Origin: Polyangiaceae bacterium
GTDB lineage: Bacteria; Myxococcota_A; Polyangia; Polyangiales; Polyangiaceae
Direction: 5' to 3'
Length of the DNA: 32,000 nucleotides
NCBI GenBank assembly: GCA_044376115.1
Contig: JBILLK010000028.1
Location: 102,389 to 134,388, forward strand
Shown: positions 1,632 to 32,000 of the stretch, piece by piece
How positions within the stretch are numbered: position 1 is the stretch's first letter
Layout: each line of letters starts with the position of its first letter
Translations under genes and position numbers: made by a program
Notes under the pieces: model-generated
The model's database searches: none
Seen by the model: only the letters and a program-made list of their open reading frames with translations
Told to the model about the DNA's origin: nothing

Positions 1632-1640
1632 AGGTTAGCT

Positions 1641-3461: not shown

Positions 3462-3463
3462 AC

Positions 3464-4537
3464 TCAGATTCGGCTGGCCAAGAGCTCACGAACGAACGCT
3501 GACGCGGCCTTGGTTCCGAGCTCTCCACCAACGTCACGCGTGCACTTGTGCGCGTCGAGCGCCTCGGTGATCGCCGCCTCAATCAGCGGCTCGAACTTGG
3601 CGTGACCGAGATGGGTCATCATCATCCCCACCGTCAAAAACGAGGCGAACGGGTTGGCGACGTCTTTGCCCGCGAGCGGCGGAGCAGAGCCATGCACCGG
3701 CTCGAACAAGGCCACGCGCTGCGTATCCGAACCATGCACGTTGGCGCTCGCGGCCATGCCGAGACCACCCTGCAACGCTGCGCCGAGATCCGTCACGATG
3801 TCGCCGAACAAGTTGTTCGTCACCACCACGTCGAACTGCGTCGGGTCTTGGATCATGAACAGACACAGCGCATCCACGTACACGTGACGAGCCTCGATCG
3901 CCGGGTACTCTTTGGCGACTTCTTGGAACGTCCTCAGCCAAAGCTCGTGCGCAAAGCGCATCGCGTTCGACTTGTCGGCCATGCACACGCGCTTCTTGCC
4001 GTTCTTGGTCGCCCACTCGAACGCCGCGCGAATGATCCGCTCCACGCCTTTGCGCGTGTTGACGTCCTCGTTGATGCCGATCTCGTCGGCGGTGCCCTTC
4101 TTGAACTGGCCACCAAACCCGACGTAGACGCCCTCGGTGTTCTCACGAAAGACCACGATGTCGATGTCCTTCGCCAGGCGCCCTTTGAGCGGCACCAACC
4201 GATCCGAAAGCACGCGAACCGGCCGCACATTGGCGAACAAATCGTAGCCGAAGCGCATGCCAAACAGGATGTCGCGCGCGTGCTCGAGCCCGGGGACGCG
4301 CGGATCTCCGAGCGCGCCGAGCAACACCGCTCGACACTCATTGCGCAGCTGATCGGCGATCGCTTGAGGGAAGGTCGTGCCGTCCCTCAAGTAGCGATCC
4401 GCGCCGAGATCGAGATCGAGAAAATCCAGAGATACGCCACCCTTGTCACGGAGCAGCTCCAGCAAAAGCCTCGCTTCACGAATGACTTCGGGACCGATGC
4501 CGTCTCCGCCGAGGATGGCGATCTTCTGGGTGGTCAT
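3464..4537 (-). CDS. leuB: 3-isopropylmalate dehydrogenase (isocitrate/isopropylmalate dehydrogenase family)
   Basis: MTTQKIAILGGDGIGPEV N-terminus, NLFGDIVTDLGAALQGGLGMAASANV and FEPVHGSAPPLAGKDVANP motifs, 357 aa. The layout is close to actinobacterial-type LeuB as I recall it. Confidence 0.8.
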   Translation of the reverse strand: MTTQKIAILGGDGIGPEVIREARLLLELLRDKGGVSLDFLDLDLGADRYLRDGTTFPQAIADQLRNECRAVLLGALGDPRVPGLEHARDILFGMRFGYDLFANVRPVRVLSDRLVPLKGRLAKDIDIVVFRENTEGVYVGFGGQFKKGTADEIGINEDVNTRKGVERIIRAAFEWATKNGKKRVCMADKSNAMRFAHELWLRTFQEVAKEYPAIEARHVYVDALCLFMIQDPTQFDVVVTNNLFGDIVTDLGAALQGGLGMAASANVHGSDTQRVALFEPVHGSAPPLAGKDVANPFASFLTVGMMMTHLGHAKFEPLIEAAITEALDAHKCTRDVGGELGTKAASAFVRELLASRI

Positions 4538-4540
4538 CGC

Positions 4541-5653
4541 TCAGCCGAGCGCCTTTTCAATCGCCACGTACTCGAGGCCGTGCGCGTCCGCGACGCCCTT
4601 GTAGGTGCAAGCGCCACCGAAGGTGTTGAGCCCGAGGAGGAGCGCTCGGTCGGCCTTGGCAGCCGCCACGACGCCCTGGTTCGCCAACTTGATGGCATAG
4701 GCCATGGTGGTGTTGGTGAGTGCCCACGTGCTGGTGTTGGGGACCGCGCCGGGCATGTTGGCCACGCAGTAGTGAACGACGCCGTCGACCTCGAAGGTCG
4801 GGTTGTCATGAGTGGTCGGTCGGCAGGTCTCGATGCAACCACCCTGATCCACGGCGACGTCCACAACGACGCTGCCCTTTTCCATTCGCGGCAGGAGCGC
4901 GCGCGGCACGAGCGTGGGAGCCTTCGCTCCGGCGACGAGGACGGCGCCGATCACGAGGTCGGCCTGTTCCACGCAGCGCTCGATGTTGTCGGGGTTCGAG
5001 TAGAGCGTCTCGATGGCGCCACCGAACACGTCCTCGAGGTACGCCATCACGTCGGCGCGGACGTCGAGGAGCGTGACCTGCGCGCCCATGCCCACGGCGA
5101 TGGTTGCAGCGTTCTTACCAACGACGCCGCCGCCCAAGATCACCACGCGACCGCGACGCGTACCGGGCACGCCACCGAGCAGCACACCCTTACCGCCGTG
5201 CTCTTTCTCGAGGCAGCTGGCACCGACCTGCACCGCCATGCGCCCTGCAACCTCACTCATCGGCTTGAGCAGCGGCAGCGTGTGATCGGGCAGCTCGATC
5301 GTCTCGTAGGCGACGCCCGCCACGCCCGTTCGCACGAGCTCCTTGGTCAGCTCGGCCTCGGCAGCGAGATGGAGGTACGTGTACAGGATGAGGTCCTTGC
5401 GGAAGAAGCCGTACTCGGCCTTGAGCGGCTCCTTCACCTTGACGACCATCTGTGCGGCCCAGGCATCTGCTGCGCTGCTCACGATGGTTGCGCCGGCCTT
5501 CACGTAGGCCTCGTCGGAGATGCCGCTGCCTTCACCGGCCGACTTCTCGACGACGACTTTGTGGCCGTGCTGCACGAGGGAGCGAACACCGGCCGGGGTC
5601 ATGCCAACGCGGTACTCTCTAGTCTTGATTTCCTTGGGAACTCCGATGAGCAC
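4541..5653 (-). CDS. ald: Alanine dehydrogenase
   Basis: [24 protein letters not shown]-terminus and the Rossmann motif [14 protein letters not shown], 370 aa. GAAGGAG-type RBS a few nt upstream of the start on the minus strand. Confidence 0.9.
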
Positions 5654-5832
5654 GGTGAACTCCTTCGTGGGTGGCCTCGCGAGAAGGCGACACAGATATC
5701 TAATGGCGGTTGAGAAACGTCAGACGCTTTGCCCGACGGCGCGGACCATACCAGAAGTGCACGCGAGCGAGACGCCTGCGTGGGCGCCTTCGTTGCGATC
5801 TACGCCGCAGCGCGTCGCGACCGCGAACCTGG

Positions 5833-6522
5833 CTAGCGGGTTCGGATCCCGCCCAGCAAGATCTCAGAAATCAGCCACTTTCGACGCTCCAACGAGGCCC
5901 CGCCGTGTTCCTCCGGGAGCAGGATCCCGAGCACTGGCGCATCCACGATGGGGTAGAGAATCAACGACAGCCCGGCTCGCACCATTTCACTCGGCTGGAC
6001 ATCGGAGCGCAGCTCACCCGTCCCTTGGAGGTTGGTGGTGATCTCCACCACCGCAGAGAGCAGCGCGTGCGTCCGCTCCTGAATGATGCTCACCAGCGTG
6101 CCCGCCCCCGCGAGCACCTCACTGCGCATGATCGCCAGCAGTTTCTGGTGGGCTGCGGAGAAGTCCACCATCACGTCAACGAAACCACGGACGATCCCTT
6201 CCACGTCGCGCTTGGTCTCGAGCACGTGCCAGGAGGCCGTGGACATCTGATCCACGGCGCGCTTCACCACGGCCTCATAAAGCCCGTGCTTGTCGGCGAA
6301 ATAATGATGAATCAGCGCTGGCTGAACCTGCGCACCCACTGCGATCTCACGCAGCCGGGCACCCGCAAAACCGTGGGCCGCAAACTCGGCCTCGGCTGCG
6401 TCTAGAATCCGCTCTTGGGTGAGCGCCGAGCTTCTCTCGCGCTTAGGCGCTGGACCCCGGGCGCTCTGCTGAGCTTCCAGCGTGCGCTTGTCGTCGTCGT
6501 CGTCGCTTTCAGGCGGTGGCAT
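5833..6522 (-). CDS. TetR/AcrR family transcriptional regulator
   Basis: HTH region ERILDAAEAEFAAHGFAGARLREIAVGAQVQPALIHHYFADKHGLYEAV. Overlaps the stop of the upstream di-iron gene by 14 nt, which implies one operon. Confidence 0.85.
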   Translation of the reverse strand: MPPPESDDDDDKRTLEAQQSARGPAPKRERSSALTQERILDAAEAEFAAHGFAGARLREIAVGAQVQPALIHHYFADKHGLYEAVVKRAVDQMSTASWHVLETKRDVEGIVRGFVDVMVDFSAAHQKLLAIMRSEVLAGAGTLVSIIQERTHALLSAVVEITTNLQGTGELRSDVQPSEMVRAGLSLILYPIVDAPVLGILLPEEHGGASLERRKWLISEILLGGIRTR

Positions 6523-7552
6523 CCCACGTTTCGTACTGAATCACGCGCAACTCTTCAAAGCCCTTCCGCACTTTGGGCGTAAGAAGTCCAAGCCGCTTAA
6601 CATTTGGCACGATTTTGGAGAACAGCAGAGTCTGAAAAGTCTGCATGATCGGGCTATTTCGCACCGCGTCGAGGCAGTCGGCCACCGGCAACCCGAGATT
6701 CTCCCAAACCTCTTGCATGAGAAAGCGATCTCGCATTAGGCGCGAGGCCTCGATGATGAACTCCTCCCGGTCGCGCAGCTCCGACTCGGACATGTCGTCG
6801 TAGACCCCGCGCAAGGAGAGGACGCCAAACGCAACATGGCGCGACTCATCGAGCATGATGCGATGAACGATGTCGCGGATCAGCGGCTCGTTCGAGGTCT
6901 GGGAGATGATGCCAAACGCGGCGAGCGCCAAGCCCTCTACCATGATCTGCATGCCCAAGAACTTCAGGTCCCAGCGGGTTTCACGCAGGATCTCGTCGAG
7001 CAGTTGCTTGAGGTGCGGCGAGACCGGGTACGTCAGCTCGATCTTCTCACGCAAGTAACGCTCATAGGCCTCGACGTGCCGCGCCTCATCCATCACCTGC
7101 GAAGCGGCGTAGAGCTTGGCCTCGGCGTCAGGCACCGAGCACACGATCTGCGACGTGGCGAGCAATGCACCCTGCTCACCGTGCAGGAAGTTCGACAACA
7201 AGTAGGAGGACGCGTGCCGCCGAACTTCGGGCAACTCACGCTTGGAGAGCCGGTTCCACACGTCCGTCCCGAAGATCGGGATGAACTGATCCGGCACATT
7301 CTCCGCCTGAGGATCCACCGGCGTTCCCCACGCAAGCTCGGTCTTGGCGTTCCACTGATGGTCCTTCGCCTTCTCGTAGAGCGCTCGCAGATCAGCGCGG
7401 CCGTCGTAGCCCAGCGTGAAAGCCGTATCCAACTCGGAGCGAAGCCAGTCCACCCCAACAGGCTCCGCATCGTTCTGAGCGCGCAGCGTTCGACGCGGTT
7501 CACTCGGGCGGGGAACGGGAATCGTTGGAACGAACTTCTCGGCTGCGCTCAT
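6509..7552 (-). CDS. Ferritin-like di-iron (AurF / R2-like) oxygenase family protein
   Basis: Two carboxylate-bridged di-iron signatures, DEARHVEAYERY and DESRHVAFG, plus MVEGLALAAF helices. AGGAGG RBS upstream of the ATG. Confidence 0.7.
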   Translation of the reverse strand: MSAAEKFVPTIPVPRPSEPRRTLRAQNDAEPVGVDWLRSELDTAFTLGYDGRADLRALYEKAKDHQWNAKTELAWGTPVDPQAENVPDQFIPIFGTDVWNRLSKRELPEVRRHASSYLLSNFLHGEQGALLATSQIVCSVPDAEAKLYAASQVMDEARHVEAYERYLREKIELTYPVSPHLKQLLDEILRETRWDLKFLGMQIMVEGLALAAFGIISQTSNEPLIRDIVHRIMLDESRHVAFGVLSLRGVYDDMSESELRDREEFIIEASRLMRDRFLMQEVWENLGLPVADCLDAVRNSPIMQTFQTLLFSKIVPNVKRLGLLTPKVRKGFEELRVIQYETWDATA

Positions 7553-7572
7553 GGTGCCTCCTGGTTTTTTAC

Positions 7573-7601
7573 TTTTTAGTTTATCAACTACCCATTGGCA
7601 A
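7573..7601 (-). promoter_or_regulatory. Candidate sigma70-type promoter for the di-iron oxygenase/TetR operon, inside a strongly AT-rich patch
   Basis: Minus strand reads TTGCCA, 17 nt, TAAAAA, about 20 nt upstream of AGGAGG and the ATG. A CAACT-N11-AGTTG inverted repeat (7585-7605) and two direct CTTTTTAGTT copies (7572-7581, 7614-7623) overlap it and could form a TetR operator. Confidence 0.3.
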
Positions 7602-7761
7602 GTTGCTGACTTTCTTTTTAGTTAATTCCATGCGCCAGCTCGCGCCCTCGGGCGTTGGCTTGGACTGGCGCATCGGTGGCGCACCACGGCAATCACCCGC
7701 CCAGCCAAGGCAGCCAGCGGGTCCCAATCGCGAAGATGGGTGGCTATAGCTGCCGCGCGGA

Positions 7762-8580
7762 TTAGCCGAGCTCAGCGACAAATGTGCGCCGCGCTGGGCC
7801 GAGCATCTGAACAGCTCCCTCCGGCGTGCAGCGGATGCTCAGCTCGCCACCGGGCAATTGGACGGTGGTGGGGTGATCGAACGCCAGCCTGCCGTCCAAA
7901 GCAGCAGCAAAGACGGTTGCACAAGCACCCGTCCCACACGCCTGCGTATAGCCAACCCCGCGTTCCCAAACGACCAGATCGATCGTGCTCTCGTCGCGAA
8001 CCGTGGCGAACTCGACGTTGGTGAGCCCTTGCCGACTGTGCTCGAGCAGCACCGCCAACTCGTCACGATTCACTGCGGGAAAAGGCTCAAACAAGATCGC
8101 GTGCGGGTTTCCGATATTGATGTCGCGCAAGCGTACCATTGCACCGAGCAAGGTGAGCTCTCGGACGCCCTCATCGCGAGCAGGCCCCATGCTCACGCTC
8201 ACGTTGAAGGCTTCTTCGCCGCGCTCGACGCGACAAAGCTTGAGGCCCGCTTCCGTCTCGACGCTGAACTCGGCGGGTGCACCGTGCGAAACAAGGAACG
8301 CGGCAACGCACCGCAGGCCGTTACCGCACATCTCAGGACGAGAACCATCAGCGTTGTAGACGAACATTTGCGCGACGCCGTTAGCGGCCGCCTTGACCAG
8401 CAGCACGCCGTCCGCGCCAACGCCGCGATGCCGATCACACCACGCGCGAAAGCGTGACTGACGCTCCGCCTCCGCTTGCGCGTCGACGACCCATTCCGGC
8501 AACGCAGAAGCTTCGCGCGCGTCGAACACGACGAAGTCGTTACCGAGACCTTCCCACTTTTCGATTCGAAGACGACTCAT
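7762..8580 (-). CDS. dapF: Diaminopimelate epimerase
   Basis: GLGNDFVVFD, MCGNGLRC and ACGTGACA catalytic-Cys motifs, 272 aa. Confidence 0.9.
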   Translation of the reverse strand: MSRLRIEKWEGLGNDFVVFDAREASALPEWVVDAQAEAERQSRFRAWCDRHRGVGADGVLLVKAAANGVAQMFVYNADGSRPEMCGNGLRCVAAFLVSHGAPAEFSVETEAGLKLCRVERGEEAFNVSVSMGPARDEGVRELTLLGAMVRLRDINIGNPHAILFEPFPAVNRDELAVLLEHSRQGLTNVEFATVRDESTIDLVVWERGVGYTQACGTGACATVFAAALDGRLAFDHPTTVQLPGGELSIRCTPEGAVQMLGPARRTFVAELG

Positions 8581-8879
8581 GGCTTGCGCTCGATGGCTTT
8601 CATAAACACGGCCTCGCTCAGACCAACGATCTCGATCAGCTTGGTGCGACTGCTGTCGCCCTTCACCAATCGCACAGCGCTCTTCGCTACGGCAAAATGA
8701 AGCGCGAGCCCACGCACCAACTCTTCGTTAGCAGCGCCGTCGACAGGTGGTGCTGCCACCGCAACTTCAAGCGCGCCGTTTTTCTCGCCGAGCACTTTGG
8801 TCTTCGATGCTCGCGGCTTGACGTGAACCGAGAAGCGTCCGCACCCATCCACGCTGCTGAAAAGCGGACGCTCCGTCAC
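8577..8879 (-). CDS. DUF167 (YggU-like) family protein
   Basis: VHVKPRASKTKVLGEKNGALEVAVAAPPVDGAANEEL matches the YggU/DUF167 signature. ATGA overlap with the dapF start. Confidence 0.75.
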   Translation of the reverse strand: MTERPLFSSVDGCGRFSVHVKPRASKTKVLGEKNGALEVAVAAPPVDGAANEELVRGLALHFAVAKSAVRLVKGDSSRTKLIEIVGLSEAVFMKAIERKP

Positions 8880-8998
8880 GGCTTGAATCGATGGCAGGTG
8901 TGACGCTGCGTCAAGCGATTGTCCGAAGTCGATGGTTCTCTGACGCCGGAGCCACTTCGTTCATTAAGGCAACCGGAACTCTGGCCGTCAATCAGGAC

Positions 8999-10642
8999 AT
9001 GCGAATTGTAACAAGTCGTTGGTTGGCCGCGATGATGAGCTCTCTCTCGTTTGCGGCTTCGGGATGCGAGCTGATCGCGAACACAGATCGTACGACCATC
9101 GGCGCGGGTGGCGCGGGCGGCGCGGGCGGCGGCGACCAGGTCGGCGGCTCGGCGGGCAGCGTCGCACAAGGCGCGAGTGATGCCGGAGCTGGTGGCGCTG
9201 GCAGCGCCTCTACCAACGGCGGTGGCGGCGCGGGTGCAGCAGGCGGCGACGGTGGCGCGGGCAGTTCCACTGTCGGTGCAGGCGGTGAAGGCGGCGCAGG
9301 CGGTGAAGGCGGTGCGGGCGGTGAAGGCGGTGCGGGCGGTGAAGGCGGCGCAGGCAGTTCCACCGTCGGTGCAGGCGGCGCAGGCGGTGAAGGCGGTGCG
9401 GGCAGTTCCACCGTCGGCGCGGGCGGCGCAGGCGGTGATGGCGGCTCGGGTGGCGCAGGCGGTGCGGGAAGCTCCACCGTCGGCGCGGGTGGCGCAGGCG
9501 GTGAGACGGGCCCTGGCGGCGCAGGCGGTGACGGCGGCGCGGGCAGTTCCACCGTCGGCGCGGGCGGCGCAGGCGGCGCAGGTGGCGCAGGTGGCGCAGG
9601 TGGCGACGGTGGTGCAGGCGGCTCGGGTGGTGTCCCGCCCGGCGAAACGTGCGCCGACCCGATGCTAGTGGAGGTCGTTCTCGACACAACCTACTTCACC
9701 AACGGGGAGATCTTCACGACCTCCACCAACGAGATTGAGAGCTTCTGCACCGACGCCGATCCCAATGTCCCCGACACTTGGGCTGACGTGGTTTACGCAG
9801 TCCAAATCAGTGATGCGTGCAGCGCTTCGTTCGTCGTGCAGAGTTCGACCGACGCGGAGATCTCCTTGCGGTCCGATTGCGGCGTCGAGGAGTACTGCGT
9901 CAACACGGTCGTTGGCGGCGGTGGGCAGGAAAACCTTTCCGTTCCATTGGAGGCGGGCACCTACTTCCTCAACATTCAGTCGGATCTACCCACTCCGTAC
10001 ACCTTGCATATCTACTGCAACACCCCAGCCTGTGGTGACAGCTTCCTGAACCCCGGCGAAGCGTGTGATGATCACAACACCGACGATGGCGATGGCTGTA
10101 GCTCGCTTTGCACGATTGAGGCGGCAGACCCACTGGTTGAGGACTGCGCCAGCGTAAGCCCTCAAGCAGCGCACCAGCTCGTGGCTGGCGCTCAGTTCCT
10201 CACCCCAGTCGGTGCGGCAGCGACCACGCTTGGTGCCCTCGACAACGAGCACGGTACTTGTCAGCTTGCACCCGCTGACCCGGCGGAGTCGTATGCGCCA
10301 GACCAGGTCTACAAGATGCGGTCGCCAGTTCCCGGTATGGCCACGGTCACGCTCGGGCTCGACCCAGCCGGGATCCCTTATTGCGGTGCTGACGTGAACG
10401 CGGAGCCCTCGTTGCCCTATTCATCTGGTTGCTACGACCGCTCGCTCTTCATTCGCGAGGCCGATTGCACCGCGGGAGCTGAGGTCGCCTGCACAGAGGG
10501 AACCAATTGGTGGGACGTGGAACAAGCCCTCATTCCTATCGCCGCAGACACGGACTACTACGTATTCGCCGACGGCTGGTTGGCCGGCTACGGATATGAT
10601 GTTGGTTCGTACACCATCCAAGTCGAGTTTACGCCCGACTGA
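8999..10642 (+). CDS. Lipoprotein with a Gly-rich repeat region and a Myxococcus-type cysteine-rich repeat
   Basis: I prefer the start at the in-frame ATG at 8999 (MRIVTSRWLAAMMSSLSFAASGC, lipobox) over the ORF-track start at 8891, which would leave only 11 bp to the divergent gene. Five GAGSSTVGAGGAGG repeats. CGDSFLNPGEACDDHNTDDGDGCSSLC resembles the Myxococcus cysteine-rich repeat. Confidence 0.7.
   Translation: MRIVTSRWLAAMMSSLSFAASGCELIANTDRTTIGAGGAGGAGGGDQVGGSAGSVAQGASDAGAGGAGSASTNGGGGAGAAGGDGGAGSSTVGAGGEGGAGGEGGAGGEGGAGGEGGAGSSTVGAGGAGGEGGAGSSTVGAGGAGGDGGSGGAGGAGSSTVGAGGAGGETGPGGAGGDGGAGSSTVGAGGAGGAGGAGGAGGDGGAGGSGGVPPGETCADPMLVEVVLDTTYFTNGEIFTTSTNEIESFCTDADPNVPDTWADVVYAVQISDACSASFVVQSSTDAEISLRSDCGVEEYCVNTVVGGGGQENLSVPLEAGTYFLNIQSDLPTPYTLHIYCNTPACGDSFLNPGEACDDHNTDDGDGCSSLCTIEAADPLVEDCASVSPQAAHQLVAGAQFLTPVGAAATTLGALDNEHGTCQLAPADPAESYAPDQVYKMRSPVPGMATVTLGLDPAGIPYCGADVNAEPSLPYSSGCYDRSLFIREADCTAGAEVACTEGTNWWDVEQALIPIAADTDYYVFADGWLAGYGYDVGSYTIQVEFTPD
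9100..9640. repeat. In-gene GC-rich tandem repeats encoding (GAGSSTVGAGGAGGxGG)n
   Basis: The unit gggcagttccaccgtcggcgcgggcggcgcaggcggtga recurs five times with variable numbers of ggcggtgaaggcggtgcg subunits between copies. Confidence 0.75.
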
Positions 10643-20042: not shown

Positions 20043-20735
20043 CTACTCGGTCGGTGGATCGGTGTTGCGTGCGGTCTCCAGCTTGGCCTTCGGCGTAACC
20101 GGGTCCACTTCGCGAGAGCCACCGTCGATCGCGTCAACGATGTACACGATCGGGCTAGCGAGGAAGGCCGTGTCCACTTGCAGCGCCAGGACGAAGGAGC
20201 TCTGGCGTCGATCGTCCAAGCCCACGCGCGCTTGTGCGACGAGTCCGAAGGACATGACGTAGCCATCGCTGTCGTAGCTGCGGCTTCCGAAGAATAGCGT
20301 GCTGGCTATGCCAGCCTGGGCGTCGAAGTCGTCGTCCGCAACTCGAACGTACGGGCCTACCGAGAGCACCATCGGAAAGGTGTCGAGCACCGGCAGCAGC
20401 AGCGAGACGCCGCCACCGAGCGCAACGTCGTCGAAGGCCTGCGAAAGCGCCTCGAGATACGGCCCGACACCGAAGTCGCGTGTACCAGTACGGCCGAATA
20501 GAACGTCGCCATGGAACCCGACGTGGAAAGCGGGCTCTTCAAATACCTGGGCGTGCTGCCCGCGCGCCGCGACGCCTGCGACCAAGCCAACACTCGCCTG
20601 CGGCTCGGCCTGAGCGAAGGCTGGCCAAAGCAAGCTTACTGCCAGACTCAGGATCGCCCCCACGGGGCATCCCAGCTGGGAACAGGCCCTGGGCGGGGGC
20701 CGTTCCTCGATTTTCCGCTGCTGGGCAAGAGTCAT
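20043..20735 (-). CDS. Hypothetical secreted protein, possibly beta-barrel
   Basis: I prefer the start at the internal Met (MTLAQQRK...), because the longest ORF (to 20786) would abut the zapA start. Signal-like ILSLAVSLLWPAFAQA, then alternating hydrophobic pattern. Confidence 0.5.
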   Translation of the reverse strand: MTLAQQRKIEERPPPRACSQLGCPVGAILSLAVSLLWPAFAQAEPQASVGLVAGVAARGQHAQVFEEPAFHVGFHGDVLFGRTGTRDFGVGPYLEALSQAFDDVALGGGVSLLLPVLDTFPMVLSVGPYVRVADDDFDAQAGIASTLFFGSRSYDSDGYVMSFGLVAQARVGLDDRRQSSFVLALQVDTAFLASPIVYIVDAIDGGSREVDPVTPKAKLETARNTDPPTE

Positions 20736-20784
20736 TCGGTTCACTGCATCCACCGTCGATGGAGATGACGCGCCTCGTGGTAGC

Positions 20785-21102
20785 ATGCCCGAGATGGCAG
20801 CACGCCCTGTTGAGCTACGCGTTGGGGGACAGTCCTATCGTGTCGTCTCATCTGCGAGTGCCGAGGATCTAGAGCGCCTCGCCACGGTGGTGGACGAGAA
20901 GCTTACCTCGCTGGTTCCCCCTGGAAAGCCCCTCAGTCCTCAGAGCCTGCTGTTGGTCGCCATGGCGCTCGCACACGACGTCGAAGTAGAGCGCGCAAAG
21001 GCCGAACGGGTACGTTCTCATTCACGGTCTGCCTTGCGCACGATGCTAGGCGAGGTGGAGGAGACCTTGGCGCTTGCCGATCAGGCCCTTCCACGGACCT
21101 AA
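20785..21102 (+). CDS. zapA: Cell division protein ZapA-like
   Basis: VELRVGGQSYRVVSSASAEDLERLATVVDEKL and LLLVAMALAHDV match the ZapA fold pattern, about 100 aa. Alternative ATG at 20794. Confidence 0.65.
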   Translation: MPEMAARPVELRVGGQSYRVVSSASAEDLERLATVVDEKLTSLVPPGKPLSPQSLLLVAMALAHDVEVERAKAERVRSHSRSALRTMLGEVEETLALADQALPRT

Positions 21103-21104
21103 CG

Positions 21105-22214
21105 TTGAGCGGGATGAAGTTCCTGACGGAGGAGCTCGAGTCGCTACGAGCTCAGAATCTGCTTCGGGAGACGGCTGCTACACCACCGGCCGGTTTGGTG
21201 CTTTGCTCGAATGACTACCTTGGGTTAGCCGAAGTCCCAGCCACTCGAGCCGCGGGGCTACCCGGCGGTTCTGGGGCCGCAGCCTTGGTAACCGGCTATC
21301 ACGAGGCTCATCGGGTCGCCGAAGCTGCGTTGGCGGAGTGGGTCGGGCTACCAGCATCGCTGCTGTTCAGCTCGGGCTACTGCGCCAACGTTGGGGTCGT
21401 CAGCGCGTTGGCCGGCCCGCCCGACCTCGTGCTTTCGGATCGCCTCAACCACGCCTCGATCATTGACGGCTGTCGCCTTTCGCGCGCGACAGTGCAGGTG
21501 TTCGAACATTGCTCGCTGGACGACGCCACCCGTCAGCTCGAACAACAGCGCTCAAAGTTTCGCCGTGCGTTCGTTGTCACTGAAAGCTACTTCGGCATGG
21601 ATGCAACCACCGCCGATCTTCGGTCGCTTCGGGCGTTGTGCGATCGTTACGACGCCGCTTTGATCGTCGATGAGGCTCATTCGCTCGGCGTGTTTGGCTC
21701 AGAGGGCGGGGGGCTTTGTCGGTCGGTGGGAGTCGTTCCCGACGTTCTGATTGGTACGCTGGGCAAGGCAGTAGGCCTTCATGGTGCGTTCGCGGCTGGG
21801 CGCAAAGAGCTCCGGACCTTTCTGTGGAATCGCGCACGCAGCTTTGTGTTTTCGACCGCAACCAGTCCGGCCTCGGCGGCTGAGATTCCTGAGCGGGTCC
21901 AGCTTGTGCGGGCGGCGGACGACCGGCGCAGGGATCTGCTGGATTGGTCAGCCGAGATCCGCACTGTGCTGGCTAGCGGCGGACAAGAGGTTTTTGGAGA
22001 CGGGCCGATCATTCCCTGGATCTTGGGCGAGGCCACGTCAGCCCTCGCTGTTCAGCGGCGACTCCTTGAGCAGGGTGTCGTTGGGCTCGCCATCCGACCT
22101 CCGACGGTCCCGCTTGGGCAGGCCCGGGTTCGGCTTGCAGCTCGTGCAGGGCTCACTCACGAGCAACGTCGGCTCGCCCGTCAGGCGTTGACGATCGTCG
22201 CGCAGACCGGTTGA
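21105..22214 (+). CDS. bioF: 8-amino-7-oxononanoate synthase-like PLP enzyme (alpha-oxoamine synthase family)
   Basis: CSNDYLGLA, DEAHSLGVFG and GTLGKA (PLP Lys) motifs. 369 aa fits BioF better than Kbl or SPT. TTG start at 21105 or ATG at 21114. Confidence 0.7.
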   Translation: MSGMKFLTEELESLRAQNLLRETAATPPAGLVLCSNDYLGLAEVPATRAAGLPGGSGAAALVTGYHEAHRVAEAALAEWVGLPASLLFSSGYCANVGVVSALAGPPDLVLSDRLNHASIIDGCRLSRATVQVFEHCSLDDATRQLEQQRSKFRRAFVVTESYFGMDATTADLRSLRALCDRYDAALIVDEAHSLGVFGSEGGGLCRSVGVVPDVLIGTLGKAVGLHGAFAAGRKELRTFLWNRARSFVFSTATSPASAAEIPERVQLVRAADDRRRDLLDWSAEIRTVLASGGQEVFGDGPIIPWILGEATSALAVQRRLLEQGVVGLAIRPPTVPLGQARVRLAARAGLTHEQRRLARQALTIVAQTG

Positions 22215-22290
22215 CGGCGCTACAGCACCCGCAACGGTTATCGGCTCGTCGTGCCTGTGAGGCTGCACGTCGGTGCCGGTGTACAACTGA

Positions 22291-22320
22291 CGCTGGTTCG
22301 ATGACCAGCGTTATTTGCGC
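22291..22320 (+). terminator. Rho-independent terminator candidate after bioF
   Basis: CGCTGGT-tcgatg-ACCAGCG, a 7-bp stem, followed by TTATTTGCGCTTT. Confidence 0.5.
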
Positions 22321-22491
22321 TTTGGCTGTTGTCGTTTTGAGGCCGACGATGTCGTGGCCACGTTACGGCTGCGGCTTTCCACGTGGCTCGCGCGTTGGTT
22401 CACGTGGTGGGAGGGAGGGTTTTGAGGTGCTGCGGGAGACGGCACGCGAAAAGGCTGGGCCTCGGTACTCGCGCGGGCGCGATCCGGCGGT

Positions 22492-22990
22492 GTTGCCGTT
22501 CCCGAGCCCTCCCAAAATCACTGCCAGGGTCTCAATAATTGACGCGACCGACCCGGCTCCGGCCTGAGGGCCCGCCCCGCTGCCTCGATCCTGCGTTCCA
22601 AAATCACTGCCAGGGTCTTAACAATCCGGCTCCGGCCCTCAGGGCCACTCCCACTGCCTCGATCGGGCGTTGGCCCCGTTCCCAAGCCCTCCCAAAATCA
22701 CTGCCAGGGTCTTAACAATCACCCCGGACATCCGGCTCTAGCCCTCAGGGCCACTCCCACTGCCTCGATCGGGCGTTGGCCCCGTTCCCAAGCCCTCCCA
22801 AAATCACTGCCCGGGCCTTAACAATTGAGCGGCTGACCCGGCCCCGGCCCTCGAGGCCCCGCCCGCTGCGTCGGTCGGGCGTTGGCCTCGTTCCCCTGTC
22901 CCCGAGATCGTAGCCAAGGGTCTTAACAATTGAGCCTCGAGGGCTGGGGCCGCCCCGCCCGCTGCGTCGATCGGGCGTTGGCCTCGTTCA
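22492..22990. repeat. Tandem repeat array A: five units plus a partial sixth, 74-106 bp each, non-coding
   Basis: Units start at about 22492, 22595, 22669, 22775, 22881 and 22977 (partial). Conserved blocks are GTTGGCCCCGTTCCCAAGCCCTCCCAAAATCACTGCCAGGGTCTTAACAAT, a GC palindrome (GGCCCTCAGGGCC or CCTCGAGG variant), and CTGCCTCGATCGGGC. Confidence 0.85.
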
Positions 22991-23007
22991 GTCCGGCTTG
23001 GGCTAAC

Positions 23008-23023
23008 TGTTTCACGTGAAACT
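23008..23023. promoter_or_regulatory. parS: parS site 1 (ParB-binding centromere-like palindrome)
   Basis: TGTTTCACGTGAAACT matches 15 of 16 positions of the canonical TGTTNCACGTGAAACA. The 14-bp core GTTTCACGTGAAAC is a perfect palindrome. Confidence 0.8.
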
Positions 23024-23771
23024 GATCGTTGGTCTTCTCCTGGCAGCTCGCCTCATCGCCCGACACTTTTCTACGTCGCGGTCGAACCGGATGCATCGCG
23101 AGCGCGGCAACTCTAGAACGCGCGTAGCCACAACCGTGACCCTATTAGCCCGGTTCGCGACTCAGCACCGACTTCGCTCACCCCAGGACGCAACGCCAAC
23201 CACGAGCCGCCGCCCCGGACCTAGCCATCAATCAACCGCACAACCATGATGTCGACACCGCGTCCCGTTGACACGTTCAACGGATTCTCACGGGAGGTCG
23301 ATCTGACACGGGGCCGGGGACTCCTCGGAACGAAGCGCGTAACCGTTTTTAGCTGGAGGCGGTTCGGAGCCTCTTCGCGGTAGAGCGACAACGGCACCAC
23401 CTCGAAACTAGTGAGCTAGAACCGTTCGACAACCGGGCAAGGCGATAGCTTTGTTGGCCCGTAAGGCACACCCCGCGTCGGAATCCCATCCGTGGCCCAC
23501 CCCACTGCGCAAAGGTGCGCTCGACCAACTAACCCTATTGCTGGTCGAACGGTGTGCGCGCCAATCCCAGGGCACCAGCATTCCGCGCTCAAACCAGCTT
23601 GAACGTATTCACAAGAATCTCGCTGAAGCTTGCCTGTACGTCGCTCTATCAGTCGTCGTGCTTCCACCAATACGAAGCTGCTGAACCGTTCTGCTCAAGC
23701 CCAAGCCACGACATGAGCGGTCTGCTGAATCGCCAGCCTCCGGCAACCAACGGTATCCGATTATCACCCAA

Positions 23772-24100
23772 GGTGGATGCAGTTGGCAGAATGACTCGAA
23801 GTCCCTGCGCGGGAGCCGGTCTGAGGTCCCAAAGGCCATCGACTTGGACGAGATATCAGATCGAATGTCGACGCAATGACGCGAGCTCGAGTGGAAGACT
23901 CCGCGGAGGTCTCCGGAGCGCCGAAGGCACGAACTAATGACTCGAGCCTTCTTCCGAAGAACCGGTCGATGGCCCCTTTGAAACTTCTAGTTTGGCACGA
24001 GTGATTCCGCTGAAGGCGGATGCAGTGGACAGAATGACTCAGGCCTTCTTCCGAAGAACCGGCCGATGGCCCTTTGAAACTTCTAGTTTGGCACGAGTGA
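23772..24100. repeat. Repeat family B: two near-identical 68-69 bp units 97 bp apart, plus a diverged upstream copy
   Basis: AATGACTC..GCCTTCTTCCGAAGAACCGG.CGATGGCCC(C)TTTGAAACTTCTAGTTTGGCACGAGTGA at 23936-24004 and 24033-24100. The leader GG(T/C)GGATGCAGT..CAGAATGACTC occurs at 23772-23797 and 24015-24040. Confidence 0.8.
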
Positions 24101-24256
24101 ATACTCTGCCTCGGTACTACTCTCGTTCGGGATACGTGCGACCGAAACGGTCGGATTCTTGTTGCCCCCATACGACTTCTAGCTGCCGCGAATTGCACCA
24201 CCGCTCCGACGCCCTCCTAACGAAAACCCCGTACGACTTGCCTTCCACAGTGACGC

Positions 24257-24272
24257 TGTTTCACGTGCAACA
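24257..24272. promoter_or_regulatory. parS: parS site 2, one core mismatch
   Basis: TGTTTCACGTGCAACA matches 15 of 16 positions of the consensus (A to C at position 12). Confidence 0.65.
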
Positions 24273-24563
24273 GCCCCGTATAGTTCCCAGCCACCCCCCG
24301 TCCAACAACGTCCACGACGTGCCGTGAGTGGTTTAACGAGCTGCAGCCGGCGGCTCGGTCCAATGAGTACCGGCCCGTGGCCCACCCCATCGCCTTATCC
24401 TCACCGTCGACTACCTATCGGCGCCGACCTCGCTAACCACGACCCGTTGCTCCCGTTCGACGTTCTCCAGAGCGCCAAGAACCCAGGCTCAAGCTAAGTC
24501 CGGAGACCAAACTGCGCCCACACCGACGCCAATACGCCAGTCCCGACAGTGACGGCCAAGCTG

Positions 24564-24608
24564 GCGGGCTAGTCCAGTCGCTGACCAGCGGGCTAGTCCA
24601 GTCGCTGA
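24564..24608. repeat. 21-bp exact tandem duplication with a 3-nt spacer
   Basis: GCGGGCTAGTCCAGTCGCTGA at 24564-24584 and again at 24588-24608. Confidence 0.85.
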
Positions 24609-25130
24609 GCATAGGGATTGACCCTCGCGCCGCGAATCCTCTTCGGCCCGGGCGTTCCTGCGTTAAACGTTCGGTTCCGAAAGCGCGGTTTGACTTAGAT
24701 GTCGACGGTCGATGCTGCCGTTCACCTCCAACCGGTAAGTCGCGGGCGGCTTAGGGCAAGCCGAAGGCACCTGGCGATGGTATGCCGGGTCGAGCGGTCG
24801 ACGCCCGCAGCGTCGAAGCTCGGTGCCCTTGGTACGGCAACCAACGATGCACTGACCGCCCACTAGTGAGATGGCAAACCACTCGGTTCCCTCTACGCCG
24901 CTATTGCGCCCAGCCGGTGCAGCCTCCCGATTGTGGCCACTGCCACCTAGCATGTCTCCAGTTGCAGTGTCGCTGCCAGAAACCGATGCGCGGGACTCGC
25001 GAAGCTAAGTCCAACACCCCCGCGACGGCCAGACCACGGCGGGGCCCGAAAGCGGCCAACCAACCTAGGCTCTGCCTGCAGAAAATACCTACTCCACGTG
25101 CGAACTGGGCCAGGTCCGAAACCTCGACAC

Positions 25131-25146
25131 TGTTTCACGTGAAACC
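25131..25146. promoter_or_regulatory. parS: parS site 3
   Basis: TGTTTCACGTGAAACC matches 15 of 16. It shares the 17-mer ACTGTTTCACGTGAAAC with site 1. Confidence 0.8.
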
Positions 25147-25187
25147 GCCCTCGGGACCCTAAACGACACCACCAGCGCCGAGATGAA

Positions 25188-25835
25188 TCAGCGAACCTGC
25201 CGAAGGGTGCCTCGATCCATCTCCCAGGTCGTCGGATTCAACGCCTCAAACCGGGCCGGATCATGGGCGACGACCACCACTACGGCATCGGCAATTACCC
25301 CGCGCACCGCGCCCAACAAAAGCTCAAGTCCGGCCGAATCCAAACCTGTCGTCGGCTCATCCAAAAGCACCAAACTCGGCCGGTGCATCAACGCTCTGGC
25401 GAGCGCGACTCGTTGCTTCTGACCCCTCGAATTGGTCCTTAAAGGTCGCTCCGCAAACGCCCGAAGCTGAAACCGCTCGCGTAACTCCACCCAAGCCGCC
25501 TCTGGATCCAGCCCATAGAACTCCGCTGCCAAGCGAAGGTTCTGCTGCCCACTGAGGTCCGGGTAAACCAACGCTTCGTGCGACAGCCAACCGATCTCGG
25601 CCCGCACCTCCGAATCATCGGCCTCGAACGGCTCAAACCTAACCTGCCCCGAGGTGGCCTTGACAGTAGTTCCGAGTACCCCGAGCAACGTGCTCTTACC
25701 CGACCCATTGGCCCCAACGACGACGGAAAGCTGGCCGGACTCAAACACCGCCGACGCTTCACGGAGCGCAACCGTCGCGCCAAACCGCTTGGTCACTCGC
25801 TCTAAAACCACCCGCGTTACACGCCGCTCGGTCAT
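25188..25835 (-). CDS. ABC transporter ATP-binding protein (CcmA-like small ATPase), no permease gene adjacent
   Basis: Walker A GANGSGKST, signature-like NSRGQKQRVALARAL, Walker B LVLLDEPTTGLD. I prefer the ATG at 25835, which overlaps the kinase stop as ATGA. Confidence 0.85.
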   Translation of the reverse strand: MTERRVTRVVLERVTKRFGATVALREASAVFESGQLSVVVGANGSGKSTLLGVLGTTVKATSGQVRFEPFEADDSEVRAEIGWLSHEALVYPDLSGQQNLRLAAEFYGLDPEAAWVELRERFQLRAFAERPLRTNSRGQKQRVALARALMHRPSLVLLDEPTTGLDSAGLELLLGAVRGVIADAVVVVVAHDPARFEALNPTTWEMDRGTLRQVR

Positions 25836-27568
25836 CGCGACCGTCGCTCCCATTCCTCAATCAGGAACGGAGCATCCACCACCGTCAGGTCGTTCTCTTC
25901 CACCGTAGGTGTGTCGTCACCGACCGACCCAGCGTCTATCAACTGCGTCGGTTCCTCGTCCGAGGCCGAAGCCGAAAACGTTGAATCGGCAGTCTCAAAC
26001 GCCATCATCGATTGCGGGAGCGGAGGCGGAGGCGGCTCCGTCCTCCGCCTCGCCGTCACGCCCCCCGCCAACCGGCTGGGAACCCTGGGAACCGTAGACG
26101 GCGCAACCAAACTCCCTCGCGCCGGATCAACAACCGCCTCCGCAGGCCGACCCACAGCGCGCTCAACTACCTTGCCACCCTCTGCACCTTCGGTCGACTT
26201 GAGCCGCTCCGTCCCACGTCCCGGACGCCCTTCGCGGAGATCGGGACGAGGCACCTCCGACTCCACCGCTCGCGGCTGAACCGTTCTCCGTGACGCAGGC
26301 GAAGGCGTCGGCGGGTGCGCCACCGCTTCCACCCCGACAACGACCTGAACTGGCTTGACGTCATGCGGAACCGCCTGCCGAGCCCGCGTTTGCCGATCGC
26401 CATCGTCCGTCTGCACCATCCGCTCAGTAGCCCGAGGCGCCGCTATTGGAGCCCTGCGGGAACCGACGGACTCTCCGGACCCTCGCTCACTTGCTCGCGA
26501 AACGACTCGCTGCGCCTGCCTGAACGGTACCAACGCTTTCGCAAACTCTCGTGCCGTGGCGAACCGCTCGTCGCGTTTCTTCGCTAGAGCTCGATGGATC
26601 GCATTGCTCAACCCAACTGGTATCCGCGGATTCACGACAGCCGCAGGCTCGGGATTCCCCGTAAGTATCTGAACGAGCAGGGCGTTGTAATTCTTCGCGA
26701 TGAACGGCCTGGTTCCCGTGAGCGCCTCATAGAGCAACACACCAAGCCCCCATACATCAACACGACCATCTAGCTGGCGCTCACCCATCGCCTGCTCGGG
26801 TGCCATATAATAAGGTGTACCCATCACCATGCCTGTCCGAGTGAGATGATGTGGTTGATCATCCCCAATGGTGGCCTTCGATATGCCAAAATCCAGCACC
26901 TTCGCGAGCACCCCTCCCTCGGCCCCAAGGAAGATATTGTCTGGCTTCATGTCACGGTGAATGACACCGATGGCATGCGCCGCATCCAACGCGGCAAGCG
27001 CCTGCAGCGCGACCTCAACCCCCAGCTCCACCGCGATGCGCCCCTCGCGCTCCAGCCGATTGGCCAACGTTTCGCCACTAAGCCTCTCCATCACCAGGTA
27101 GGGCTGACCACCGGAGACAACCTCGCCAAACTCGAGCACGTTGCAGATATTGGGATGCGTGATTCGGGACACTACGGTCGCCTCGTGCCGCATCCGAGCA
27201 ACCGAGTCCTTCTTCTCCGCGTGCTCGGGTTTGAGCACCTTCAGCGCGACTCGAACCCCCGTGCGCTCCGAAAGCGCCTCGTAGACCGTTCCCATCCCGC
27301 CTTGCCCCAACACCCCAAGCAAACGAAAACGCCCACGCAGCGCTTGCTTGAGGTCATCCTCCGATGATGACTGCGGGCTTACCTTCTTCGCTATGGGTGC
27401 GGGTCGCGTTTGACGCGCGATCGCACGACGCTCTGCAGGCCGCTCACGCTCTGCGGGTCGCTCACGCTCTGCGGACCGATCGCGCTCCGCACCAATTGCA
27501 AGGCCTGTCGTCGGGCATACCGCCCTCGACGCCACATGCAACAGCCCGCAGTGGGGACACCGAATCAT
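25832..27568 (-). CDS. Ser/Thr protein kinase with an N-terminal zinc ribbon and a Pro/Arg-rich C-terminal tail
   Basis: MIRCPHCGLLHVASRAVCPTTG, then GQGGMGTVYEA, VALKVLK, HRDMKPDN, DFGISK and GTPYYMAPEQ. No TM segment seen. Confidence 0.85.
   Translation of the reverse strand: MIRCPHCGLLHVASRAVCPTTGLAIGAERDRSAERERPAERERPAERRAIARQTRPAPIAKKVSPQSSSEDDLKQALRGRFRLLGVLGQGGMGTVYEALSERTGVRVALKVLKPEHAEKKDSVARMRHEATVVSRITHPNICNVLEFGEVVSGGQPYLVMERLSGETLANRLEREGRIAVELGVEVALQALAALDAAHAIGVIHRDMKPDNIFLGAEGGVLAKVLDFGISKATIGDDQPHHLTRTGMVMGTPYYMAPEQAMGERQLDGRVDVWGLGVLLYEALTGTRPFIAKNYNALLVQILTGNPEPAAVVNPRIPVGLSNAIHRALAKKRDERFATAREFAKALVPFRQAQRVVSRASERGSGESVGSRRAPIAAPRATERMVQTDDGDRQTRARQAVPHDVKPVQVVVGVEAVAHPPTPSPASRRTVQPRAVESEVPRPDLREGRPGRGTERLKSTEGAEGGKVVERAVGRPAEAVVDPARGSLVAPSTVPRVPSRLAGGVTARRRTEPPPPPLPQSMMAFETADSTFSASASDEEPTQLIDAGSVGDDTPTVEENDLTVVDAPFLIEEWERRSR
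27441..27476. repeat. 18-bp tandem repeat within the kinase 5' region, encoding (ERERPA)n
   Basis: cgctcacgctctgcgggt followed by cgctcacgctctgcggac, with more diverged flanking copies on both sides. Confidence 0.75.
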
Positions 27569-27569
27569 C

Positions 27570-27994
27570 TCTTCCTGCGCACCTTCGCGACCTTGAGCCT
27601 ACAGGGAGCAAACCCATTCGCGAAGAACCGTTTCCAACTGACCACGTCGCATCCAACCCGCACGACGGTTAACTACCTGTGGGAAGCCTCCGGACCAGGC
27701 CTGGTGAAAACCCCCTCTACCCGGCCAACGACAAACTGTTCACACCTTCTCAACGCCCAGTCCCAATTTGAGACCCCAACAAGCCCGCTCCTCCAACACC
27801 CTTATCCAATTGTATTTAATAGTCTTTTCCCCTTATCCCCAGAATCCACAGGACCTACTACTACGACTTCTAGATATCTCATTGATCTCACTTTGAGACG
27901 AAGAGCACCTGTTGGTCTCAGTCGTAGCGTGAATGTCCAACACGCTCCTTTTCTCTAGAACAACCTGCTAAAGCCATTCCCAGGAGTTCAACGG
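27570..27994. promoter_or_regulatory. Divergent promoter region upstream of dnaN with an AT-rich patch and DnaA-box-like 9-mers (possible oriC or DnaA-regulated dnaN promoter)
   Basis: TTATCCAAT (27802-27810), TTATCCCCA (27833-27841) and GAATCCACA (27842-27850) against the consensus TTATCCACA. AT-rich ATTGTATTTAATAGTCTTTT (27809-27828). AGGAG RBS before the ATG at 27995. Confidence 0.4.
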
Positions 27995-29137
27995 ATGCAG
28001 CTGGTCGTGCCCAAAAAAGATCTTCTGCGCCTGGTCAGCAGGTGTCAGGGAGTCGCTGACAAAAAGAGTGCCATGCCCGCACTCTCCAACATCCTGCTCA
28101 CGGCCGAAGGAACGCACCTTCACGTCAGCGCAACGGACACGTTTCTCTCCATCACTGGAACCGTTTCAGCCGACGTGGAAACCGCTGGCTCCGCCGCTGT
28201 CCCAGCACGCGAACTTTTCGATCGTGTGAAGGCCATGCCCGACGGCCCCGTGCAACTGTCGACCTCAGGCAGCGGCCAGACAACTATCAAAGCAGCCGGC
28301 TCGCCGCGGCGTTTCACCATGCACGGCATCCCCGCCGCGGACTTCCCGCCCCTACCCAAACCCGATCCTGCGCAGCCCGTCGTGTCCATGCCGGTCGAGG
28401 TGTTGTCCAAGCTGATGGCACGCACCCACTACTCGATCGCACAAGACGAGACGCGGGCACACGTCAACAGCGCGAAGTTCGAGTGGACCGGCAACCGCGC
28501 GCGCATGGTGACCACCGACGGTCACCGCCTCTCAAAAATGGAAGCCGTGATCGAGGGAGCGGATGCGAACCTCGACATGCTCATCCCGGCGAAGGCCATC
28601 GGGGAACTCCGTCGGCTCACCGACGACGCCAAGGCCGAGCGCTCCGACGCGAAGGAAGCACCCACCGTCAGCATCACGCGAGTTGGACCCACCGCGTTCT
28701 TCGAACTCGCCTCAATGCGTTTTGGCGTGAAGCTGGTCGACGCACAATTCCCGGCCTACAACCAGGTGGTCCCATCCACGACCTCGCGCTCTGTGCGCAC
28801 CCCGCGCAAGGGATTTGCAGAGGCACTCGACGCAGTTCGTATCGCCGCAAGCGACCGCACCGGTGGCGTCAAAATCACGACCCTTACCGGCCTTTTGCGT
28901 GTGACCAGTGAAAGCCCGGAAAGCGGCAACGGCTTTGACGAGGTGCCCGTGGACTTCACGGGCCCCGAGCTGACCATCGGCTTCAATGCCAAATACTTCC
29001 TCGACGTTCTCAACTCGATGGACGACGAGGAGGTCGTGTTGGGTCTTTCGGGCGAGCTTGACCCGGCCGTCATCCGCCCCGCAGCAGAGTCGGACAAGGA
29101 GTCCTTCGTCGGCGTGATCATGCCGATGCGAATTTGA
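27995..29137 (+). CDS. dnaN: DNA polymerase III beta sliding clamp
   Basis: MQLVVPKKDLLRLVSRCQGVADKKSAMPALSNILLTA...ATDTFLS, 380 aa, followed by recF and gyrB in the conserved order. Confidence 0.95.
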   Translation: MQLVVPKKDLLRLVSRCQGVADKKSAMPALSNILLTAEGTHLHVSATDTFLSITGTVSADVETAGSAAVPARELFDRVKAMPDGPVQLSTSGSGQTTIKAAGSPRRFTMHGIPAADFPPLPKPDPAQPVVSMPVEVLSKLMARTHYSIAQDETRAHVNSAKFEWTGNRARMVTTDGHRLSKMEAVIEGADANLDMLIPAKAIGELRRLTDDAKAERSDAKEAPTVSITRVGPTAFFELASMRFGVKLVDAQFPAYNQVVPSTTSRSVRTPRKGFAEALDAVRIAASDRTGGVKITTLTGLLRVTSESPESGNGFDEVPVDFTGPELTIGFNAKYFLDVLNSMDDEEVVLGLSGELDPAVIRPAAESDKESFVGVIMPMRI

Positions 29138-29150
29138 TTCGAGCGGCCCG

Positions 29151-32000
<2,850 letters not shown>

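Follow-up and report, generated by a model that had tools for sequence, protein, structure and literature searches.

Putative parS palindromes in a gene-free spacer close to the predicted replication origin of a Polyangiaceae bacterium

In bacterial ParABS systems, ParB is recruited to parS, closes into a cytidine triphosphate (CTP)-dependent clamp and slides along the DNA; the complex is segregated by ParA and loads SMC. Here, we describe three palindromes of the parS type in a 32,000-nt stretch of DNA from a Polyangiaceae bacterium (contig JBILLK010000028.1, positions 102,389 to 134,388; this whole stretch is referred to as the window), all of which are located in a non-coding spacer upstream of dnaN. 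They resemble the parS sites of ParABS systems such as Bacillus subtilis Spo0J/parS, to the extent that the chromosomal parS survey of Livny, Yamaichi and Waldor (2007) is represented in the paper that cites it (PMC3899335), in being 16-bp palindromes matching tGTTNCACGTGAAACa, in their low copy number, in their origin-proximal clustering and in their rarity elsewhere in the sequence examined here. They differ from ParABS parS sites generally in being known from sequence alone, in being more than 10 kb away from parAB and in being all three intergenic within a 3-kb spacer.

Within the same phylum, the parS cluster of Myxococcus xanthus (Iniesta 2014, PMC3899335; Harms et al. 2013, PMC3778016) is likewise found in non-coding DNA with tandem repeats, near but not at oriC, and its sites are clustered over ~2-3 kb, as here. 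However, M. xanthus has 22-26 sites of the type TGTTCCACGTGGAACG, spaced ~80-160 bp apart within the repeats, whereas the window has 3 sites of the GTTTCACGTGAAAC type outside the repeats, and the half-site is GTTCCAC in M. xanthus and GTTTCAC here. The M. xanthus cluster is also located ~4 kb upstream of parA and ~35 kb from oriC, whereas the sites described here are 2.4-5 kb from a predicted oriC and away from parAB. The related M. xanthus ParB protein binds the sister consensus TGTTCCACGTGGAACG in vitro (PMC3899335). A Myxococcus locus included in our comparison (L162) has ~26 parS-like sites at 1182-4985, many of them spaced ~80-82 or ~162 bp apart, within a region upstream of parA (1-9183) that contains no codon-phase signal and no called genes. 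The window shares with this type of array the multi-kb gene-free stretch (2,973 bp here vs ~9 kb in L162), and lacks both the at least ~20 copies within tandem repeats and the position a few kb upstream of parAB. In L162, bacP-like bactofilin genes were seen after parB.

The third point of reference is the oriC predicted for Sorangium cellulosum So ce56 by Gao and Zhang (2008; PMC2650636), which has a kinase-oriC-dnaN context. The same context is found at 27569-27994 of the window, where similar DnaA boxes of the TTATCCCC type are accompanied by an AT-rich stretch. That paper describes an origin and not parS, and the parS sites of the window are located 2.4-5 kb to the left of oriC, beyond two genes. 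No description of parS from Sorangium or Polyangiaceae was found in our literature search. Judged by its sequence features, the locus appears to be a chromosomal parS cluster of the ordinary kind.

A preliminary description of the window had reported parS-like palindromes at 23008, 24257 and 25131. A pattern search for the 16-bp inverted repeat TGTTNCACGTGAAACA with up to 2 mismatches found these three sites in the window, each with 0-1 mismatches:

23008 to 23023, no strand assigned: parS-1, TGTTTCACGTGAAACT; the 14-bp core palindrome is perfect and the outermost base is the 1 mismatch.
24257 to 24272, no strand assigned: parS-2, TGTTTCACGTGCAACA; read on the minus strand it is TGTTGCACGTGAAACA, with 0 mismatches to TGTTNCACGTGAAACA.
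25131 to 25146, no strand assigned: parS-3, TGTTTCACGTGAAACC; the 14-bp core is perfect and the outermost base differs.

The three sites give 6 strand-matches, compared with 0.04 expected from 100 dinucleotide shuffles, of which none reached 6. A match of 15 of 16 positions had been claimed for each site, and this is correct for parS-1 and parS-3, both of which also contain the perfect palindrome GTTTCACGTGAAAC, as had been described; for parS-2 it is too low, with 16 of 16 positions matching on the minus strand. When the search was relaxed to 3 mismatches, no extra site was found in the window, nor in the 8.4 kb of the source contig that adjoin it on the left; rarity elsewhere in the genome was judged on 40 kb of the source contig and on 1.4 Mb of related loci. 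The spacing is 1249 bp between parS-1 and parS-2 and 874 bp between parS-2 and parS-3, and all sites are located outside the repeat units of the spacer. The sites had been placed near dnaN-recF-gyrB; these genes were confirmed, and the dnaN start is 4987, 3738 and 2864 bp downstream of parS-1, parS-2 and parS-3, respectively, that is, 2.9-5.0 kb. parS-2 and parS-3 have 22 of 25 flanking nucleotides in common (repeat family D6), and parS-3 is 42 bp away from the stop codon of the neighboring gene for an ATP-binding cassette (ABC) ATPase.

For comparison, a DnaN-based scan with one genome per species was used, yielding 80 loci (1.4 Mb), all from Polyangiaceae or other Myxococcota. The exact core GTTTCACGTGAAAC is present in 76 copies in 39 of the 80 dnaN loci, with ~0.005 expected by chance. 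The preliminary description had proposed asking whether such 16-mers are scattered; in these related loci they are not, as all 76 cores are located 2-10 kb upstream of dnaN, almost all in a syntenic bioF/bioD-ABC-ATPase interval, with 0 copies in 744 kb downstream of dnaN and in the 2 kb immediately upstream. For the form GTTNCACGTGNAAC, only a single variant was seen, one GTTTCACGTGGAAC. The clade with sites comprises Sorangium, Polyangium, Chondromyces, Byssovorax, Minicystis and metagenome-assembled genomes (MAGs), and sites are present in all well-flanked loci of the Sorangium/Polyangium/Chondromyces/Byssovorax/Minicystis clade. Loci with a DnaN identity of 62% or less are mostly without sites near dnaN, and the arrangement is therefore clade specific.

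Gene order around the sites is kept: orf20043 (minus strand), zapA (plus), the bioF-like gene (plus), usually bioD (plus), the parS sites, the ABC ATPase gene (minus), a Ser/Thr kinase gene (minus), an intergenic region, dnaN (plus) and recF (plus). Within this order, the sites recur at two positions, one directly after bioF/bioD, to which parS-1 corresponds, and one at the 3' end of the ABC-ATPase gene. The ABC-proximal site at the position of parS-3 is also found in L001, L004, L005, L007, L022 and L043, and in L003 with a one-mismatch core. The comparison shows these two sites, just after bioF/bioD and just after the ABC-ATPase gene, to be the ancestral ones of the clade. In Sorangium, the first parS is located exactly at the bioF-bioD junction (L015 6406-6419; L009 3912-3925) and would be read as V-S-R-E-T in the longest BioD open reading frame (ORF); it may therefore overlap the start region or the coding sequence of bioD. 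The closest locus, L001, is from a Lake Erken MAG, and its neighboring genes share 77-84% DNA identity with those of the window. A metagenome scan for closer relatives with Walker-motif patterns of the ABC ATPase gave only hits with at most 41% identity. When the spacers of the window and L001 were compared by sensitive blastn, only the parS cores and two repeat families aligned. The retention of the core amid unalignable flanks is the strongest available evidence suggesting that the palindromes function.

Because of the consensus match, the clustering beyond chance, the conservation of the core across ~39 Polyangiaceae genomes amid unalignable DNA and the proximity of the predicted oriC, we conclude that the three palindromes are almost certainly ParB-binding parS sites next to the predicted origin, in agreement with their identification in the preliminary description.

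The spacer in which the sites are located is bordered by two convergent genes:

21105 to 22214, plus strand: bioF-like gene for a pyridoxal phosphate-dependent acyltransferase (Pfam Aminotran_1_2), the left border of the spacer, syntenic in relatives.
22215 to 25187, no strand assigned: non-coding spacer of 2,973 bp between the convergent bioF-like and ABC-ATPase genes, containing all three parS sites.
25188 to 25853, minus strand: ABC-transporter ATPase gene, the right border of the spacer, syntenic in relatives.

The top NCBIfam match of the bioF-like gene is TIGR00858 (bioF), with 357 bits, which is under the cut-off of that model. The amplitude of the codon-phase GC signal is mostly <0.1 in 22215-25187, compared with 0.2-0.35 in the flanking genes, and it is flat in the listed ORF 22211-22567. 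No Pfam match was obtained for the six spacer ORFs or for any of the 21 stop-free frames of at least 70 aa, and the gene caller of the Joint Genome Institute (JGI) placed no gene in the spacer of an identical 141-kb contig. The claim that the sites are in a gene-free interval was thus borne out by the absence of phase signal, Pfam matches and called genes, and the interval is wider than had been claimed. That this setting is unusual is real for the window, but the point is weakened since the sites of relatives abut or overlap genes (bioD, ABC ATPase) and the Myxococcus cluster is gene free too. Sites 1 and 3 had also been said to bracket a repeat-rich segment, which holds only approximately: parS-3 is near the end of the spacer, but parS-1 is 794 bp inside it and the largest array is to the left of the bracket.

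In most relatives, L002, L004 and L015 among them, bioD (dethiobiotin synthase; PF13500, and TIGR00347 above its cut-off) follows bioF in this interval. In the window it is absent from 22215-23000, with no pseudogene detectable there, and tblastn searches with three BioD proteins found no bioD remnant in the window; the bioD gene of this genome must be located elsewhere or have been lost. A hidden gene in the spacer was rejected on the grounds that the frames have no Pfam match and tblastn found no BioD, and an origin from mobile DNA was rejected on the grounds that blastn of the spacer against plasmids and phages gave no match. Furthermore, no tRNA or tmRNA genes were found in the window, and Rfam searches of the window, the spacer and the L001 spacer at gathering and permissive thresholds gave nothing credible, the only match being an L31-leader with 21.9 bits and E=0.5.

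The spacer contains two repeat families that are shared with L001:

22444 to 22990, plus strand: tandem array of ~five units of 86-106 nt, with CCAAAATCACTGCCAGGGTCTTAACAAT in each unit; it ends 18 nt before parS-1.
23770 to 24136, minus strand: ~96-nt repeat in ~2.5 copies; an inverted repeat, GAGTCATTC...GAATGACTC, is located within it, and short-read assemblies break here.

The first of these is the largest tandem array, and its core AAAATCACTGCCAG is present in 3 exact and 1 near-exact copies, compared with 0.13 expected. In L001, an array with 5 copies of AAAATCACTGCCAG (1-240) immediately precedes the first parS, and 5 tandem copies of the same ~96-nt repeat family are found at 817-1290. 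The AAAATCACTGCCAG array may be a protein-binding array. The ~96-nt repeat was also considered as a structured small RNA, as hairpins are visible by eye (GAGTCATTC/GAATGACTC, inner CCGCC/GGCGG), and this candidate was rejected since RNAalifold and shuffling did not support structure in the 96-nt unit (covariation term +2.46; folding z-scores -0.8 to +0.1). The L001 copies have a GGGGCCTTCGGCCCC hairpin followed by TTTTCT, which is terminator-like in appearance.

In relatives, the same interval holds bioD, mobile-element debris, unrelated repeats or almost nothing; the spacer is lineage specific and is therefore most likely tolerated filler, and the gene-free setting of the sites is most likely incidental. 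As a whole, we consider it highly probable that the palindromes are chromosomal parS sites, forming the origin-proximal centromere of a Polyangiaceae chromosome, and that the spacer is such filler; this estimate applies to the parS identity and the filler spacer jointly.

Several points weigh against this explanation. Neither parA nor parB was found in the window or in the 8.4 kb to its left, nor, in any of the 80 loci, within +-10 kb of dnaN; parAB is absent from -36 kb to +4 kb of the sites, and a tblastn search with Spo0J/Soj against all 80 loci found nothing. A search with the M. xanthus ParB sequence (from PDB 7BNK) gave only Cystobacterineae among the matches listed, and no Polyangiaceae ParB locus; a 50%-representative search and a cluster look-up yielded unnamed proteins. 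The parS cluster of this clade is hence uncoupled from parAB, which is more than 10 kb away, and we infer the presence of ParB in this genome from its phylum. The oriC next to the sites is itself a predicted one, and GC skew within the window has no switch of the origin type, but a change from positive to negative near 22 kb. parS-1 is supported by one assembly only, the JGI contig of 141 kb (L164), which matches the window. With respect to the filler part, the AAAATCACTGCCAG array and the 96-nt unit are common to the window and L001 and are in the same order, in spacer DNA that is otherwise unalignable.

If the palindromes are parS sites, ParB dimers would recognize each 16-bp palindrome, bind CTP and close into clamps, and the clamped ParB would slide onto the flanks, such that the partition complex would span several kb and include the predicted oriC 2.4-5 kb away. 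ParA would then segregate and position this complex, in Myxococcota possibly with a bactofilin/PadC scaffold, and the complex would also load SMC. We infer ParB binding, clamping, spreading and ParA positioning at this locus by analogy with established ParABS systems and with M. xanthus (PMC3899335). With regard to the spacer, the convergent intergenic region would tolerate insertion, loss, decay and repeat expansion, with the parS sites as the sole constrained elements; in the lineage of the window, bioD has been lost from this position, and the sites are now surrounded by ~3 kb of repeat-bearing non-coding DNA.

An alternative that accepts the parS sites assigns the gene-free, repeat-rich DNA around them a function in the centromere: it would offer ParB a platform free of transcription on which to load, slide and condense, or would supply an array of binding sites, for example AAAATCACTGCCAG, to an accessory or anchoring factor. 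We regard this as possible but unlikely. Long non-coding DNA around parS is indeed recurrent: in addition to the 3 kb of the window, there are at least 2.8 kb in L001, which contain 4 cores, and stretches of 2-4 kb that show no convincing coding signal in several Sorangium strains. In L004, two parS sites 2.3 kb apart enclose an unrelated 185-nt tandem array (the spacer's own ~92-nt array), the Myxococcus genome has ~9 kb without coding signal and ~26 parS sites upstream of parA, and the window and L001 have kept two repeat families in common although the rest of their spacers cannot be aligned. However, the outermost cores of relatives can be as close together as 29 bp or as far apart as 4.7 kb, and many relatives are almost spacer free, with spans of only 29-46 bp in L002, L005 and L071, while So ce56 (L015) has one perfect parS in ~300 bp of non-coding DNA, ~3 kb from its predicted oriC. 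Spacers are also unrelated between genera, the Sorangium stretches are mutually non-homologous, and mobile-element debris is found inside them (a serine-recombinase Zn-ribbon fragment and an IS110 transposase fragment; L009 5832-6497, L021 4355-4660), which suggests that the parS zone is an insertion-tolerant spot. There is no structure signal in the 96-nt unit, and tandem arrays are not enriched near parS family-wide (0.96 vs 1.63 per 10 kb), for which reason they were rejected as a general hallmark of the parS zone. It is doubtful that Myxococcota have small regional centromeres, in which conserved parS sites would be anchors in multi-kb, gene-free repeat DNA of fast turnover. The non-coding DNA and its lineage-specific arrays, such as the AAAATCACTGCCAG array next to parS-1, would then be under selection, either as a platform on which ParB meets no roadblocks or as binding arrays for a scaffold or anchoring factor; in a loose and speculative parallel to eukaryotic centromeres, the architecture would persist although its sequence changes.

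It is very improbable that the gene-free interval forms all or part of the replication origin, with the palindromes belonging to the origin architecture. The features to the right of the spacer are as follows:

25832 to 27568, minus strand: Ser/Thr protein kinase gene, which corresponds to sce8163 of Sorangium cellulosum So ce56 (PMC2650636).
27569 to 27994, no strand assigned: predicted oriC, the kinase-dnaN intergenic region of 426 bp, which matches the Ori-Finder position for So ce56 (PMC2650636).
27995 to 29137, plus strand: dnaN.
29151 to 30269, plus strand: recF.
30298 to 32000, plus strand: gyrB, truncated by the end of the window; its start is approximate.

The spacer is long, non-coding and repeat bearing and is only a few kb from dnaN, and GC skew changes sign locally at ~22-23 kb; but this change is from positive to negative, the opposite of an origin, and the spacer is not conserved among relatives. 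DnaA-box-like 9-mers are at background density in the spacer (4 in 3 kb vs 1.0 per kb window-wide), and 22215-25187 contains no AT-rich maximum, on which grounds it was rejected as oriC. The kinase-dnaN region, in contrast, contains TTATCCAAT (27802), TTATCCCCA (27833) and GAATCCACA (27842), all on one strand and within 50 bp. No other 500-bp bin of the window has at least 3 such 9-mers, and the most AT-rich 100 bp of the window adjoin this cluster (27800-27900), which matches the published prediction. On the dnaN coding strand, GC skew in the window is negative from ~-6 to +2 kb around the dnaN start, down to -0.24, and in the family average over 50 related loci the negative values extend from -4 to +2 kb, with weakly positive ones past +3 kb. 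GC skew is uninformative at the scale of the window. Reportedly, Schneiker et al. found no origin from GC skew, and the prediction by Gao and Zhang came later. The local trough of negative skew around the predicted origin is unusual, and dnaA itself is not adjacent to dnaN in the window. In addition, the Ser/Thr kinase gene contains an 18-nt tandem repeat of 3.6 copies (27428-27491) in its 5' part, shortly before the predicted oriC.

Equally hard to credit is that the palindromes are operators of another dimeric DNA-binding protein, such as a regulator of the biotin genes or of an ABC/kinase operon, rather than ParB sites. The location of the Sorangium site exactly at the bioF-bioD junction and the absence of parAB nearby would fit such a role; however, the sites persist in the window though bioD is gone, the second conserved site is located at the 3' end of a gene that is convergent and would, as an operator, have no promoter to act on, and the sites adjoin the predicted oriC. 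To our knowledge, moreover, the palindrome sequence is that of the universal chromosomal parS consensus and not of a known biotin-regulator operator.

Finally, the arrangement could in part be an assembly artefact. An independent Logan assembly (L081) is 100% identical to 24071-31896 of the window and covers parS-2 and parS-3, and because of this identity these two sites are real. Other assemblies of the same organism, including short-read assemblies, end in the repeat arrays at 22664, 22741, ~23890 and 24071, and 22742-23889, which includes parS-1, is present in one contig only. We give next to no credence to a repeat-induced misjoin in the metagenome contig, as both flanks are syntenic with ~40 genomes, sites 2 and 3 were confirmed independently and the order in L001 (array, parS, 96-nt repeats, parS, parS, parS, ABC) matches that of the window.

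The Sorangium/Polyangium clade includes the largest bacterial genomes. Our data place the likely chromosomal centromere of this clade within a few kb of the only published oriC prediction, and the position of the parS sites gives this prediction independent comparative support. In this clade, unlike in Myxococcus, the parS cluster is uncoupled from parAB. For work on these organisms, the sites provide concrete targets for ParB chromatin immunoprecipitation sequencing (ChIP-seq) and for fluorescent tagging of the origin. Our results leave the understanding of ParABS itself unchanged; that parS is repeatedly associated with long stretches of hypervariable non-coding DNA in Myxococcota may merit a dedicated survey.

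Some further observations concern the surroundings of the sites. A 24-nt tandem duplication in perfect register (GCGGGCTAGTCCAGTCGCTGA...) is located at 24564-24611, between parS-2 and parS-3. To the left of the bioF-like gene, a conserved gene for a 247-aa protein (20043-20786, minus strand) has no Pfam or NCBIfam match and is always divergent to the adjacent zapA. In the Polyangium loci L024, L029 and L034 (~720-1550), two additional parS cores flank the gene for this 247-aa protein.

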